Shown piece by piece: positions 22,953-28,616 of a stretch of DNA of 64,000 nucleotides; the first letter of the stretch is position 1, and each line of letters begins with the position of its first letter. The notes under the pieces were generated by a model, which was not told the origin of the DNA, searched no databases, and saw only the letters and a program-made list of their open reading frames with translations. A program made the position numbers and the translations under genes. The stretch is from Planctomycetota bacterium (GTDB lineage: Bacteria > Planctomycetota > JAJSAM01 > JAJVHW01): positions 160,001 through 224,000 of the forward strand of contig CBDFJG010000004.1 of assembly GCA_965248445.1 (NCBI GenBank), written 5' to 3'.

Positions 22953-24200
22953 ATGAGATCGCTCCGTCTGCCGCTCGCCATCGCCCTCGGACTGGCGACC
23001 GGTGCGGTCGGCGGCTGGGCCGTGGCGACCGTCATGCAGGATCCGCCGGAGAGCGACGCGCTCCCCGCCCCGCAGGACGACGCCGTGGACCCGGAGATCG
23101 CGCGCCTCGAGAAGGAACTGCTCCGCAAGGAGCGCGACCTGGACACGGCGTACCGCGAGCTCGAGCTGTTGCGGCGGGCGCAGTCGCCGGTGACGCAGGA
23201 CACAGCCGGTCTGCTCGACGCAGCCGGCAGGCGAGCAGGCGTCGCGCTGGGAGACTCCGCTGCGGACGAGTTGACGCGTCGCGCCGCGGGCATCCGGCGC
23301 ACGCACCTGCAACGCGCTGCGGCGGCTGAGCACACCGCCGCGAGTCAGATCGCACAGGAGACGGCGGCCGAGCGGTCACGCCTCGTCGACCTGGAGCGCG
23401 GCGGCACGATGGCGTTCATGCGCGCGCTGCAGGAGAGCTGGGCGCCGCCCTGGGAGACGCTGCGCGACCCGGAGGCCTACAGGAAGCTGTTCGAGCGCAA
23501 GAGCGCGTCCGTGCCGGTCGACCCGGAGGCCCTGTCGGGCACCGGGGACTTACCCGACGGCGCGCATGTCCATTACCCGGCCGGACGGCACGCGTTCGCG
23601 GCGGGGAGCCTCACGAATCGTGCCACCTTCCCGAAGGACTTGCTGGTGACGGGCGCGGGCATGGACGAGACCGTGCTCGTCTTGGACACGGAGCTGCGCA
23701 TGCGGCCCGACGTCCACAGCCTCTCGTTCCGCGATCTGACACTCTTCACGAACGACAACTCCCTCGAGAGGATGCGCACCAACCCCTACACGCTCCGCCT
23801 CGAACGGTGCCGCGTCATCGGATTCGATTCGGGAGCCGGCGGGTCCAAGATGCTCGGCGGCAGGGTCGGCGCGTTCTACGCGTCCGACTGCCGGATCGAG
23901 GCCGGGTTCGGAAGATCGCCGGGCGGGAACCTGTTCGACGTACGTGGCGCCCTGATCGCGCGACTGGAGCGCTGCACGATCGACGGTCCGTTCAGCAGCG
24001 TGTACTACCAGTGGAGCGGCGCCGCCCAGGTGTTCGAAGATTGTCGCTTCGAGAACATGTCGCCCGGGCGAAAGACGCATCTCGAGACGCCGGGAGACAT
24101 GGTCCGGTTCATCAATTGCACGCTCGCCTATGCGGAGACGGACAAGGAGAGTCGAAAGCGCCGGTCGCTGATCGACATCAATCCGGCCTGGAGCAAGTAA
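22953..24200 (+). CDS. Hypothetical membrane-anchored protein: coiled coil followed by a probable parallel beta-helix
   Basis: N-terminal TM, heptad region, then LVTGAGMDETVL and repeated LERCRV/ASDCRI/LERCTI/FEDCRF/FINCTL rungs. Confidence 0.6.
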   Translation: MRSLRLPLAIALGLATGAVGGWAVATVMQDPPESDALPAPQDDAVDPEIARLEKELLRKERDLDTAYRELELLRRAQSPVTQDTAGLLDAAGRRAGVALGDSAADELTRRAAGIRRTHLQRAAAAEHTAASQIAQETAAERSRLVDLERGGTMAFMRALQESWAPPWETLRDPEAYRKLFERKSASVPVDPEALSGTGDLPDGAHVHYPAGRHAFAAGSLTNRATFPKDLLVTGAGMDETVLVLDTELRMRPDVHSLSFRDLTLFTNDNSLERMRTNPYTLRLERCRVIGFDSGAGGSKMLGGRVGAFYASDCRIEAGFGRSPGGNLFDVRGALIARLERCTIDGPFSSVYYQWSGAAQVFEDCRFENMSPGRKTHLETPGDMVRFINCTLAYAETDKESRKRRSLIDINPAWSK

Positions 24201-24279
24201 CGCACACGCGCCCCGGGGCGCCTCGGTTCGCTATCCTGGCGCGTGGCGGAAGACGCGGGGGGGGAGAACGGAGCGCAGT

Positions 24280-25715
24280 ATGGCCACGTTGCCCACACTG
24301 GACGCGACACGCGCCGCGGCGTACGTGGACGCCGCGTGGGACCGGAACGTGATGCCCGCGCTGCTCTCGTTCATCCGCATCCCGAACAAGTCGCCGCACT
24401 TCGACCCCCACTGGGAAGCGCACGGGCACATGGAGCGGGCGACGCAGCTGGTGGCCGACTGGTGCGAAGCCCACAAGCCCGAGGGCGCGTCGGTCGAGAT
24501 CGTCCGGCTCCCCGGGCGCACGCCTCTCGTGTTCGTCGAAGTGCCCGCCACCGGCGGTCTGCAAGACGACACCGTGCTCCTCTACGGCCACCTGGACAAG
24601 CAGCCCGAGATGACCGGGTGGGCCGAGGGCCTCGACCCGTGGACGCCGGTGCTCCGCGAAGACAGGCTGTACGGCCGCGGCGGCGCAGACGACGGCTACG
24701 CGGCGTTCGCGGCCGTGGAGGCGCTGCGCGCGATGGACGAGCAGGGTGTGCCGCGTCACCGCGCCGTCATCCTGATCGAGGCGTGTGCGAGGAGAGCGGC
24801 AGCCCCGATCTCCCCCACTACGTCGAGCATCTGGCCGGCCGCATCGGCGCGCCGTCGCTGGTCGTCTGCCTCGACTCCGGATGCGGGGACTACGAGCGGC
24901 TGTGGCTGACGACGTCGCTGCGCGGCATCGTCGTCGGCCGCCTGGAAGTGACGGTGCTGACCGAGGGAGTGCATTCGGGTGACGCCGGCGGTGTCGTCCC
25001 GTCCTCGTTCCGTGTCGCGCGGCGCGTGCTCTCGCGACTCGAGGACGAGATGACGGGCCAGATCCGCCTGAACGAACTGCACGTGAAGGTCCCGCCGGAG
25101 CGCATGCAGCAGGCGCGTCAGGCCGCTGCCGTGCTCGGCAAGAAGGTGCACGAGCGATTCCCGTTCGTGGAGCGCGGCGGACCCGAGTCCGACGATCCGC
25201 TCGACTGCGTGCTCAACCGCACGTGGAAGCCGACCCTCGAGATCACGGGTGCCGACGGCATCCCCAGCGTCGAGGACGCGGGCAACGTGCTGCGGCCCGG
25301 CACCACCCTCAAGATCTCACTCCGGCTGCCACCGACCTGCGACGCAGACCGCGCGGTACGGATTGTCCGCCGCGTTCTGGAGCGGGAACCGCCGCACGGG
25401 GCGCGCGTCCGGCTGCTGGACGCCGGGGGCGCCACGGGCTGGAACGCTCCGCCGATGGACGCGTGGCTGACGGCGTCGCTCGACGCGGCCTCGCAGGCCC
25501 AATTCGGAACTCCGCCCGCGTACATGGGCGAGGGCGGGACGATCCCGTTCATGGGGATGCTCGGCGAGCAGTTCCCGGAGGCACAGTTCGTGGTCACGGG
25601 CGTCCTTGGCCCCGGCTCGAACGCGCATGGTCCCAACGAGTACCTGCACCTGCCGACGGCGCGGCGAATCACCGCGGTGATCGCGCACGTCCTCGGCGAC
25701 CACGCCGCGCGGTGA
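24280..25715 (+). CDS. M20 family metallopeptidase (dipeptidase-like), one frameshift near 24785
   Basis: YGHLDKQP, LYGRGGADDG, LDSG, GEGGTIPF, NAHGPNE. Removing an extra TG from GCGTGTGCGAGGAG restores the catalytic IEACEESGSPDL. Confidence 0.85.
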
Positions 25716-26005
25716 GCCGCGCCGCGCAGCCTCCCGAGACCTGTCCCACGTGCGGGGGGCGCGTGCCATCGCGCCCGGACGGCCGAGTCGTCGGGTGCTG
25801 TCCCGCGGGCATGGTGCCGAAGCAGCACGACGAAACCCGCTCGACGACGGCCGCGTGGTCCCGCGGCGTCGAGCGGATCGTGTACGGGCTCGGAGGCCTG
25901 ATGTCGGGCGGCCCGGGACTGCGGTTGGGCCTGGGCGTGTTGCTCATCGTCCTGGCGGCGGCGTGCGTCGCGGCGATCCAGTGGCTCGCGGTGCAGTACT
26001 TCTAG
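25712..26005 (+). CDS. Small membrane protein with N-terminal CPTC...CC motif
   Basis: GTGA start/stop overlap with the M20 gene; CxxC zinc-ribbon-like start and C-terminal TM helix. Confidence 0.5.
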   Translation: MSRAAQPPETCPTCGGRVPSRPDGRVVGCCPAGMVPKQHDETRSTTAAWSRGVERIVYGLGGLMSGGPGLRLGLGVLLIVLAAACVAAIQWLAVQYF

Positions 26006-26439
26006 TCGAACGCGGCTTGCACCGTGGGACGCGCGAGCACGACGAGCGTGAAGATGCCGAGGGCCGTGCCGAGCGGGATGCTGAGGAGCGCCAGTGCCGC
26101 GACCACCTGGCAGAACGTGCGGTTCCGGCGCTCCTTCAGGAAGCGCGCGCAGAAGAAGCTCAGCGCCGCCGATCCGAGCTGGATCACAGCGATCACGCCG
26201 AAGATCACGAAGAACATCGGGAACATGGACTCGAGCATCTGCACGACCTCGACGTCGGCGCCGCTCTCCGCCATCTGATCCGTCATGCCCTTGATGAACC
26301 TGGGCATGAAGACCGCGTAGGCGCCCATGGCCATGCACCCCATCACGGACATCGCCGCCATGACGTAGTGGAAGATCATCAGCAGCTCGAGGTGCGAACG
26401 GTCCTCGGGCGGCAGGTCGACTGCGGATGCATCGGTCAT
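26002..26439 (-). CDS. Hypothetical membrane protein (about 3 TM)
   Basis: HLELLMIFHYV and IPLGTALGIFTLVVLARP hydrophobic segments. Confidence 0.75.
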   Translation of the reverse strand: MTDASAVDLPPEDRSHLELLMIFHYVMAAMSVMGCMAMGAYAVFMPRFIKGMTDQMAESGADVEVVQMLESMFPMFFVIFGVIAVIQLGSAALSFFCARFLKERRNRTFCQVVAALALLSIPLGTALGIFTLVVLARPTVQAAFD

Positions 26440-26461
26440 GTCTGTCGAATGAACCGGCTGT

Positions 26462-27658
26462 CTACTCGACTGGTTCGTTGTCGGCGGCAGGTTCGTTGTC
26501 GGCGGGGGGTTCGTTGCCGGCGGGACCGACCGGGGCGCCCATCTCCGCGAGGAGTTCGTCCACGGCCTCGTCCATCTTCTCGCCGCGCACGTTCTTGAAG
26601 CGGATCCTGCCTTCGGCGTCGATCACGTAGATCGTCGGCCAGCTCGACACGTTCCAGCGCGCAGAGATCGGACCGCGCGTTCCCTCGGGCCCGTTCCAGA
26701 AGCTTCGCCACGTGATCTTCTCTTCCTTCATCCGCGAGGCGAGCTTGTCCTTGTCCTTGTCACTGTTCAGACCGATGAGCGCGAAGGGCTTGTCAGCGAG
26801 TCTCTTCACGAGCGACCGCTCGTGCGGGTACATGGCCCGGCAGGGTCCTCACCAGTCGCCCCAGAAGTCGAGCACCACCACCTTCCCTCGGTAGTCCGAG
26901 AGTTGGAAGGCGACGCCGTCCAGGTCCTCGCCCGCGATGTCCGGCGCCTCCATGCCGATCTGCAATCGCTCGATCTCGAAGATCGTCGACGCGGCACGCT
27001 TGCCGTGTGCCGACTCCGGCGCGATCTCGGACGCACGGTTCAGATCCACGAGCGCGCCCGCAAGCGCCCCTTCGCGCGCGGCCGGGTTCTCGAACTCGCG
27101 TCGCAGGACGCCTGCACCGCGGGCATACAGCATGGCGGCGGTCACAGCGTCGTGTGCCGTGATGGACACATCCATGGCTTTCGCGACCCGCTCCTCGCCG
27201 AGTTTGTCGGCGTAGTACAGGAACGTGAACGTCAGATCCGTCCATGCTCCGCTGCCGGCATGGTCGGCGATCAGCGTGTCGAGCGCCGACTGGGAGGCCT
27301 CGATCTCGTGACGCATCGCGTACTGGACCGTGCGAACGAGGAACTTGGCGGCCTCCGGCGTACCCGCGAACTGCGCGGCGGCATCGCGGTACTTCGGCCA
27401 CATGACCTTCTCGGCCGGCGGCTTGGTCTGCTGCCGCGGGCCCGTCGAGCCCTTGGGCTGCGCGCGGCGGGACCTCGCGTACTCCGAGCGCGCGGTCTTG
27501 TACTCGGCGGCGAGCCTCTCCAGCACCGCTGCGGCGTCGGGCGCGGCCTCGACAGCCGCCCCCGGCGGCTCGGCGTCCTGCGCGCGCAGATCGCCGCTCG
27601 ACAGAGCGAGCGATGCCAGTGCGGCGATACCCGCGGCGAACACGATGCCTCTTCGCAT
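26462..27658 (-). CDS. Secreted TlpA/redoxin-family thioredoxin-like protein with in-frame TGA, probable selenoprotein (UxxC), 398 aa
   Basis: ORFs 26849-27658 and 26462-26833 are in one frame and read LSDYRGKVVVLDFWGDW-[TGA]-GPCRAMYPHERSLV...WPTIYVIDAEGRIR; AAGGAGG RBS and signal peptide. Confidence 0.88.
26472..26525 (-). repeat. Three 18-bp tandem units encoding the NEP(P/A)AD tail of the redoxin
   Basis: + strand GGTTCGTTG(T/C)CGGCGG-NN occurs three times. Confidence 0.7.
26807..26824 (-). promoter_or_regulatory. Candidate bacterial SECIS element
   Basis: mRNA CACGAGC-GGUC-GCUCGUG: perfect 7-bp stem with a GGUC loop starting 31 nt after the UGA. Confidence 0.75.
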
Positions 27659-27728
27659 GTGGCCCTCCTTGGTGCGACCGCCCGACAGGATACGCCGAGC
27701 CGAGGGACGGTGCGCGTCCCGTGTGCGG

Positions 27729-28616
27729 TTACTCGGCCGAGAGGCTCTGGAAGATATCTCCAGCCAACCTGTCCGGCGGGATGAAGCCGCCGCCCCACTT
27801 CTCGTCCCACGCGGCCGTCGGCTTGGCTTCGATGACCTCCTCCTGCGTCTTGCCCTCTTTGATGAGGGCAGCCACGGCGTCCACGCAGCCCGTCAGCATG
27901 TCGCGGTACGCGGTGAGCCCGGCCTTGTCGGTCACCGGTCCGTGCCCGGGGATGACCTTCGTGCCGTCGCCGCAGAGCGTCAGCGCGCGCTCGATCGCCG
28001 CCTGCGCCCCCGTCACCGAGCCACCCGCGGATAGGTCGATGAACGGGTACATGCCATTGAAGAAGCAGTCGCCCATGTGGACGACGTCCGCCTCGGCGAA
28101 GTGCACGATCGTGTCACCGTCGGTGTGCGCCGGACCTGCGTGGAAGCCCTTCACCGTATCGCCGTTGACGTGGAACGTCATGTCGTGGGCGAACGTGACG
28201 AGCGGCAGCGCCACGTCCGCCGCAGGCTTGCCGAAGCGCTTCGCATACGCGGGATCCGTCATGCGAGAACGGACGTTGTCGTGCGCGTAGATGGTGGCGC
28301 CGGCCTTGCCCATGTTCTCGTTTCCGCCCGTGTGGTCGCCGTGGAAGTGCGTGTTCAACAGGAAGCGCGGCGCCTCGCCCCCGAGCTCCTTGATCGCTGC
28401 CAGGATGTCCGGAGAGGCGGCGGCGAACTGGTCGTCGATCAGGAACACGCCGTCGTCACCCACGGAGAGCCCGATGTTCCCCCCCCGTCCGAACAGCACG
28501 TGCACGTGTCCGGAGACCTGCTCCGTCCGCATGCTCTGCGCCTCGGTCGCGGTCTGCCAGAGCCACGCACCGGCGCCCGCCACGACGATCGCGCCCAGGA
28601 TCAGGATCTTGCGCAT
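27729..28616 (-). CDS. MBL-fold metallo-hydrolase (cyclase-like), exported
   Basis: NTHFHGDHTGGN, AHTDGD, HMGD, IPGHG; N-terminal signal. Confidence 0.88.
   Translation of the reverse strand: MRKILILGAIVVAGAGAWLWQTATEAQSMRTEQVSGHVHVLFGRGGNIGLSVGDDGVFLIDDQFAAASPDILAAIKELGGEAPRFLLNTHFHGDHTGGNENMGKAGATIYAHDNVRSRMTDPAYAKRFGKPAADVALPLVTFAHDMTFHVNGDTVKGFHAGPAHTDGDTIVHFAEADVVHMGDCFFNGMYPFIDLSAGGSVTGAQAAIERALTLCGDGTKVIPGHGPVTDKAGLTAYRDMLTGCVDAVAALIKEGKTQEEVIEAKPTAAWDEKWGGGFIPPDRLAGDIFQSLSAE

Follow-up and report, generated by a model that had tools for sequence, protein, structure and literature searches.

Introduction

In thioredoxin-fold enzymes with a CxxC motif, the first residue attacks and the second Cys resolves, and a G-P or P-P dipeptide between the two redox residues is thioredoxin-like. 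TlpA of Bradyrhizobium (1jfu), ResA of Bacillus (2f9s, 4nmu) and the TlpA-like proteins of Bacteroides (4grf, 2lrn) have an extended thioredoxin fold with a W-[C/U]-x-x-C motif and a proline loop, and the protein described here resembles them in all three respects. Among selenoproteins, the Prx-like UxxC family has been defined (PMC1088965), and the Sec machinery together with selenoprotein candidates has been described in planctomycetes (PMC4807772). Dataset S1 of the 2008 GOS study (PMC2398784) lists members of the same subfamily with U at the same place, and gives the motifs W-U-G-P-C-R-E-M-Y-P-H-E-R-S-L-V, D-F-W-G-F-W-U-P-P-C and D-F-W-G-D-W-U-P-P-C; three entries come after the heading 'Prx-like 1' and before 'Prx-like 2', and one stands under 'Trx-like 1'. 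These entries are partial reads placed in broad families, and they are predicted, not experimentally verified. In a search of openly accessible papers and some supplements, no paper was found that names the subfamily, the helical domain, the full architecture or the invariant hairpin described below, and the text of the BSepDB paper contains none of the terms searched for.

The gene and its in-frame TGA

The gene occupies 26462..27658 on the minus strand of the window (that is, the whole stretch of 64,000 nucleotides that was analysed). It runs from the ATG at 27658 to the TAG at 26464-26462 and comprises 398 codons with a single internal stop in the translation, while the plus strand of 26462-27658 gives no meaningful translation. 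A Shine-Dalgarno sequence, AAGGAGG, is located at 27664..27670 (minus strand) with a spacing of 5 nt to the ATG. The internal stop is the TGA at 26851-26849, which is codon 270 and stands in the context DFWGDW-[TGA]-GPCRAMYPHERSLV; the residues around it are D-F-W-G-D-W-[TGA]-G-P-C-R-A-M-Y-P-H-E-R-S-L-V. Translation table 11 yields two ORFs instead, one of 269 aa (26849-27658) and one of 123 aa (26462-26833), and public protein collections carry both halves, each as a protein of its own.

When the TGA is read through, the 398-aa protein exceeds the Pfam cut-offs of AhpC-TSA, Redoxin, Thioredoxin_8 and Thioredoxin, and all of the match stretches cross the TGA; the match to PF00578, with a thioredoxin-type UxxC motif, reaches 63.2 bits against a cut-off of 26. 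Among the NCBIfam models, none scores above its cut-off for the joined protein. An earlier sequence-only reading had proposed that one gene is split here by a TGA and that the joined ORFs form one thioredoxin fold. Both proposals are borne out, by the single frame and by the Pfam and structural matches, and the strand, which that reading did not give, is minus. The two database proteins thus come from one gene, whose active-site residue, judged by sequence comparison, is almost certainly selenocysteine encoded by UGA (26849..26851, minus strand), the first position of U-G-P-C.

The letter at 26849 was also checked: contigs from three runs of one sample are identical to 26300-27800 of the window. 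Since the assembly may derive from this sample, their agreement is not independent and carries little weight. The independent support for codon 270 is the conservation of the TGA in other genomes. Scanning for promoters and terminators gave nothing informative, and run X5 yielded only short, diverged pieces from relatives.

Gene neighbourhood

Across 111 loci there are no conserved neighbours that would point to a substrate or to DsbD; the five window neighbours compared match at 0 of the 111 loci, and the largest neighbour cluster comprises 6 loci. At 26002-26439 (minus strand), 23 nt past the end of the selenoprotein gene, begins a gene for a 145-aa membrane protein that matches no family, and at 27729-28616 (minus strand) a gene for a metallo-beta-lactamase-fold hydrolase, which scores below all the curated cut-offs shown, stops 71 nt short of the selenoprotein gene. 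These two genes may share a transcript with the selenoprotein gene, although they are not conserved neighbours. Further away, at 24178-25715 on the plus strand, an M20 peptidase gene appears to be frameshifted: a 209-aa ORF from 24280 encodes the N-terminal portion, and a different frame, which ends at 25715, encodes the dimerisation and C-terminal domains. This would be a pseudogene or an assembly slip.

Conservation of the TGA codon

Homologous loci (L011-L076) were collected with peptide seeds lying outside the active site and the hairpin, which gave 72 full-domain matches, with 3 short ones left out. Forty-three of the 72 (the window counted) have a thioredoxin-domain identity of at least 50%, and they comprise 42 with TGA and 1 with TGC, so the tabulation of TGA against TGC/TGT proposed in the earlier reading comes out in favour of TGA. 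The other 29, with less than 50% identity, divide into 24 with Cys, 3 with TGA and 2 with another codon. Metagenomes were scanned with a codon-degenerate M-Y-P-H-E-R-S-L-V pattern that does not include the TGA codon, and at least 125 stretches were obtained; the matches listed amount to 123 distinct sites, of which 122 have TGA and 1 has TGC. Of 401 genomes examined from the phylum, 67 have the pattern with TGA (up to 6 copies per genome) and none has it with TGY, encoding Cys. Viral contigs gave no match to the pattern.

The relatives found belong to the Planctomycetota, in agreement with the earlier suggestion that the DNA comes from a probable Planctomycete. selA, the one gene of the Sec machinery examined in the relatives, is present in 67/67 genomes with the TGA form (9 + 58) versus 49/61 in a general sample, and the TGA form occurs in 0 of the 12 genomes lacking selA. 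The weight of this co-occurrence is limited by the fact that selA is common in this phylum, and no P value is attached to it because kin are not independent.

The full-length Cys homologues in the protein collection have Cys at the same position as Sec270, and this confirms the earlier placing of the TGA at the N-terminal Cys of CxxC. A DNA-level Cys control that keeps the same peptide was found in 0 of the 401 genomes, and the single case among the 123 listed metagenome sites has an altered peptide; in the protein collection, Cys proteins with the same peptide do occur. A tree was built from 107 Sec and 88 Cys domains over 127 columns, with the hairpin-coded region masked. It contains 23 changes of the Sec/Cys label, versus a mean of 64 after shuffling, and the Cys forms are scattered among the Sec forms. 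A direction of change from Sec to Cys is suggested by this pattern, as read from a biased sample and an unreliable root.

Some degenerate relatives were also encountered. The locus L102:1483 (plus strand) is a degraded copy in which the open frames to either side are short, and its hairpin is the sole broken one among the 122 listed TGA sites. The homologues P0005-P0008, P0015, P0023 and P0117 have a degenerate redox motif in which one or both Cys are lost; of these, P0005, P0006 and P0008 start directly after the presumed Sec site and have a second, degenerate domain.

The SECIS hairpin

According to the legend of Fig. 2A in PMC13188914, the bacterial SECIS model requires a loop of 3-9 nt, a stem of 4-16 bp, a distance of 16-37 nt from the UGA and a limit of -7.5 kcal/mol. 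Downstream of the TGA, within the codons of H-E-R-S-L-V (26807..26824, minus strand), there is a hairpin with a 7-bp stem, a GGUC loop 31 nt downstream of the UGA and a folding energy of -10.5 kcal/mol, which satisfies all four constraints and which was not mentioned in the earlier reading. It also follows the bacterial SECIS consensus given in the same source, having a 4-nt loop of the form G-G-N-N with G at the first two positions. Unlike that general consensus, the sequence of the hairpin here is almost unchanged in genomes that span 46-73% GC.

The five core codons are exact in 120/122 of the metagenome TGA sites among the matches listed, in a search that allowed every synonym, and in 39/42 of the close TGA homologues (the exceptions being L052, L063 and L019). 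From the codon use of the same genes, an exact core would be expected in about 1.1% of cases; this expectation and the GC range were computed on the first 80 loci, with 76 sites. The Pro and Gly codons flanking the core vary freely. Among the 3456 synonymous encodings of H-E-R-S-L-V, the one in use is among the four tied as best-folding and is the one with the GG loop. Compensatory changes from G-C to A-U, on both sides of the stem, are seen in L083 and G377 at the cost of Leu to Phe, and in G144 the stem pair is kept as a U-G wobble. In the relatives with a Cys codon for which DNA is available (L069, L191), the hairpin is absent, and their peptides also differ. The PHERSLV peptide occurs in 19/88 Cys homologues and is more variable there than in the Sec forms.

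Against shuffled sequences, the folding scores have z values of -0.3 to -1.4 in three short windows and positive values in two long ones, and in two of the five the hairpin region folds differently. The support for the SECIS element is conservation, mostly invariance with a few covarying cases, and the folding score alone is not significant. The element is an unusually clean natural case of a coding sequence constrained by a hairpin, and the set of hairpins is useful for the training of predictors or for tests of SelB specificity.

Sec-decoding machinery and use of TGA in the genome

The genome comprises 5.4 Mb in 4 contigs and is 92% complete. The sequence-only reading had found no sel genes in the window and had expected a Sec-decoding system elsewhere; this system is present, with selA at C1:526553, selB at C4:739119, selC at C2:455518 and selD at C3:1080793, all above cut-off and all outside the window. 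The tRNA-Sec encoded by selC scores 68.3 bits against a cut-off of 47 and has the anticodon TCA, and selD carries an in-frame TGA of its own, at G-U-A-C-K. What was found is therefore opposite to the signs of error named in that reading: the site reads TGA and not TGC or TGT, the TGA is shared with other genomes, and none of selABCD is missing. TGA is the commonest stop codon in the genome, closing 1251/1994 long gene-like ORFs, and the genome encodes RF2; there is no general reassignment of TGA.

When the genome was searched for read-through genes with the family profile, 5 thioredoxin-fold genes were found with a TGA in frame inside the match, and all 5 have a downstream hairpin satisfying the SECIS constraints as coded; 2 further weak matches have the TGA outside the matched part. 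The other 4 genes are located at C1:614313 (minus), C1:315009 (plus), C4:671858 (plus) and C3:1771889 (minus), each with a TGA and a SECIS-like hairpin, and their motifs are U-A-G-C, U-T-P-C, U-V-G-C and G-S-Y-T-U-G-P-F. The last of these motifs resembles a deiodinase-like entry of the 2008 dataset.

Protein architecture

The N-terminus was predicted to be a cleavable signal peptide (residues 1 to about 26; 27581..27658, minus strand), with two Arg, a hydrophobic core and L-R-A before QD, where cleavage would take place. The prediction comes from a simple hydrophobicity rule and not from SignalP: the best 11-residue mean is 2.58, there is no second strongly hydrophobic 19-residue window, and the same rule is passed by 80/91 relatives. 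The AlphaFold2 model, in which Cys stands for Sec, has a pLDDT of 89 and consists of an N-terminal helix, a linker, a helical domain, a thioredoxin domain and a disordered acidic tail. The tail (26465..26542, minus strand) has N-E-P repeats, is of low confidence in the model and is not conserved among the relatives.

The helical domain (residues 42-231; 26966..27535, minus strand) is an all-helical, TPR/HEAT-like solenoid, which reaches a pLDDT of 95 when modelled alone. Its length of about 190 aa and the signal-like start agree with the earlier description of a signal peptide followed by a helical domain of about 200 aa. Its best structural matches are generic TPR/HEAT repeats with VIA-align Z of 9.5 or less; Foldseek gave no match at E 0.001 or below, and Pfam and the PDB sequences gave nothing specific, the best being a CpoB TPR at E 2e-4. 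HEAT_2 is matched in 21/83 relatives and is absent from the protein here. Since the domain has no Cys, is poorly conserved (mean column identity of 21%) and is missing or replaced in some relatives, it fits a variable binding module, and may be one.

The thioredoxin domain (residues 232-372; 26543..26965, minus strand) is of the TlpA/ResA type. In VIA-align it matches 4grf with Z 20.6 (rmsd 2.0, 140 aligned), ResA 2f9s with Z 19.8 (rmsd 1.7, 135 aligned) and TlpA 1jfu with Z 15.0 (rmsd 2.4, 136 aligned). Cys273 (26840..26842, minus strand), which aligns as the resolving Cys, is the sole Cys codon of the gene. The W-P-T loop proline named in the earlier reading is likewise present (Pro341; 26633..26641, minus strand) and is invariant in 64/64 sequences of alignment A1; it stands at the cis-proline position of the thioredoxin fold, so its cis geometry is that expected from the fold.

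Two relatives have a doubled architecture: L202 (G279:C42) and L203 (G141:C92) are in-frame fusions of two helical-plus-thioredoxin units, each unit with a TGA and a hairpin, and they would encode two-Sec proteins. Seven database proteins begin just past a Sec site and end at the next, and look like middle pieces of two-Sec genes.

Proposed mechanism and presumed link to DsbD

Taken together, the gene very probably encodes an exported TlpA/ResA-type thiol-disulfide oxidoreductase with Sec as the attacking residue of U-G-P-C, an estimate that does not extend to the link with DsbD. In the proposed mechanism, SelB would, with near certainty, bind the GGUC-loop hairpin 31 nt past the UGA and bring the Sec-tRNA, and translation would run on to the TAG at 26462. 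Judging by its N-terminus, the signal peptide would very likely direct the protein to the periplasm. There, by analogy with known enzymes, the selenolate of Sec270 would attack a disulfide in an envelope protein, Cys273 would resolve the intermediate to an internal Se-S bond, and DsbD would re-reduce the enzyme with electrons from cytoplasmic thioredoxin; this course of the reaction is somewhat probable. The helical solenoid might select or hold substrates or partners.

By the same analogy, the protein most likely reduces disulfides in the periplasm and receives its electrons from DsbD. The G-P/P-P dipeptide, the TlpA/ResA fold, the presence of DsbD and the lack of a DsbB match in the genome speak for a reducing role, though at 92% completeness the lack of DsbB may also come from incompleteness. 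The genome has one DsbD gene, with matches to DsbD_N, DsbD_TM and Thioredoxin_7. It is located at L208:823-2718 on the minus strand (G000:C1:397665-399560) and itself contains a TGA at L208:1101-1099. This TGA is at the first Cys of the C-terminal thioredoxin domain, in F-T-G-K-G-U-I-N-C; the Sec call is less complete for this DsbD, since the downstream stem lacks the consensus G of the loop. A search for DsbD gave matches in 33/61 genomes, and the 30 loci fetched comprise 22 with TGA, 7 with Cys and 1 without a visible motif. In the 9 sampled genomes with the TlpA pattern, there are 7 TGA DsbD, 1 Cys DsbD (G038) and 1 partial match (G057). At L246 (G040:C58:8000-14500), a TGA DsbD is followed immediately, on the same strand, by a TGA member of the family, which is the single adjacency of this kind seen. 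The link between DsbD and the Sec-TlpA protein is inferred from the fold and the chemistry of the family.

A wider reading, put forward tentatively and rather doubtful, is that in many uncultured Planctomycetota envelope reduction uses selenium at two consecutive stages, from Sec-DsbD to an expanded Sec-TlpA family with a TPR/HEAT-like substrate-binding domain. The peptide would then be frozen because the SECIS hairpin froze its five codons phylum-wide, and would drift after repeated reversion to Cys. Against this reading stand G038, which pairs a Sec-TlpA with a Cys DsbD, the many Sec-DsbD genomes without the subfamily, and the fact that linkage was seen once. Sec-containing 'thiol:disulfide interchange' domains, moreover, were already listed in 2008.

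Alternative explanations

Several explanations would remove selenocysteine from the protein. A pseudogene or an assembly error, namely an ordinary CxxC gene with a nonsense mutation, is a kind of decay that does occur, as one degraded copy among the relatives (L102) illustrates. But the same TGA is found in 122 of the 123 listed metagenome sites and in 67 genomes; P0004, an independent protein with 80% identity, stops at this very codon; conservation of the downstream half is high, and the contigs have no other letter at the TGA, which leaves this explanation with a negligible probability. The UGA could instead be read as Trp, Cys or Gly through a reassigned code or leaky read-through, since the identity of residue 270 is drawn from sequence comparison. 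This is very improbable, given that TGA is the stop codon used most and RF2 is encoded, the sole tRNA with a TCA anticodon is tRNA-Sec, the nearby Trp codons are TGG and the co-occurrence with selA is perfect (67/67). Two polypeptides would result if translation stopped at the TGA and re-initiated at the Met of M-Y-P-H-E-R, the hairpin being some other regulatory element; an ATG does lie 18 nt past the TGA, with a weak and distant SD-like site, and gene callers predict both pieces. Such a division would, however, cut the thioredoxin fold and lose the redox motif, yet Cys273 is conserved; some TGA relatives have CTG, TTG or CTA in place of the Met codon (CTA in G377), and the second piece has no signal peptide, so that re-initiation is extremely improbable.

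The remaining alternative keeps the selenoprotein and changes its job: a periplasmic oxidant scavenger or repair relay, which passes electrons to a peroxiredoxin or methionine-sulfoxide reductase or reduces peroxide directly, or else an isomerase or oxidase. The top Pfam match is AhpC/TSA, relatives stand under 'Prx-like 1' in the 2008 dataset, the Glu typical of ResA is missing, and neither cytochrome-c-maturation genes nor other informative neighbours are present, all of which is consistent with such a job. On the other hand, the redox residues form a U-x-x-C motif enclosing G-P or P-P and not the peroxiredoxin T-x-x-U, and structures of the TlpA/ResA/DsbE type rank above peroxiredoxins (Z 20.6 versus 17.0 for Bcp1). 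This job is possible but less than probable, and the disulfide reductase fed by DsbD is the preferred reading.

Comparison with known systems

Three assignments to described families were tried and rejected. Orthology to ResA or the rhizobial TlpA (NF002854, NF047696) fails at 71.4 bits against 170 and 50 against 230, with the ResA Glu absent and the context not conserved. A Sec peroxiredoxin does not fit, since the P-x-x-x-T-x-x-U motif is absent and the motif here is W-U-G-P-C. The WAxxUGC ResA-like selenoprotein (NF041054) reaches 32.7 bits against a cut-off of 300, and the motif is U-G-P-C, not U-G-C; with these UGC-containing proteins the protein here shares the TlpA-like fold and Sec at the first position.

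Annotation of this subfamily is wrong at scale, the Sec form being present in 67/401 sampled genomes of the phylum and deposited as inactive halves. Because it is stored as halves, searching protein collections brings up mostly Cys forms, and a common selenoprotein stays hidden. Whether envelope redox control in planctomycetes depends on selenium is a testable question. The frozen hairpin, the two-Sec fusions and the Sec-DsbD are reason enough to build a family model and to test the biochemistry, but they do not warrant claiming new biology.

The signal-peptide-like N-terminus suggests that the protein would, like TlpA and ResA, be exported. It differs from them in having Sec for Cys, at about 26-28% identity, and in having an apparently cleavable signal peptide and a 190-aa helical solenoid instead of their membrane anchor; in the alignment with 4nmu, the Glu that ResA has three residues past CxxC is Met here. 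The entries of the 2008 dataset (PMC2398784) have the same motifs and the same Pfam families, a match at the level of motifs. The protein is a member of a kind of selenoprotein known for about twenty years, from a subfamily published with U in 2008, and it brings no new mechanism.
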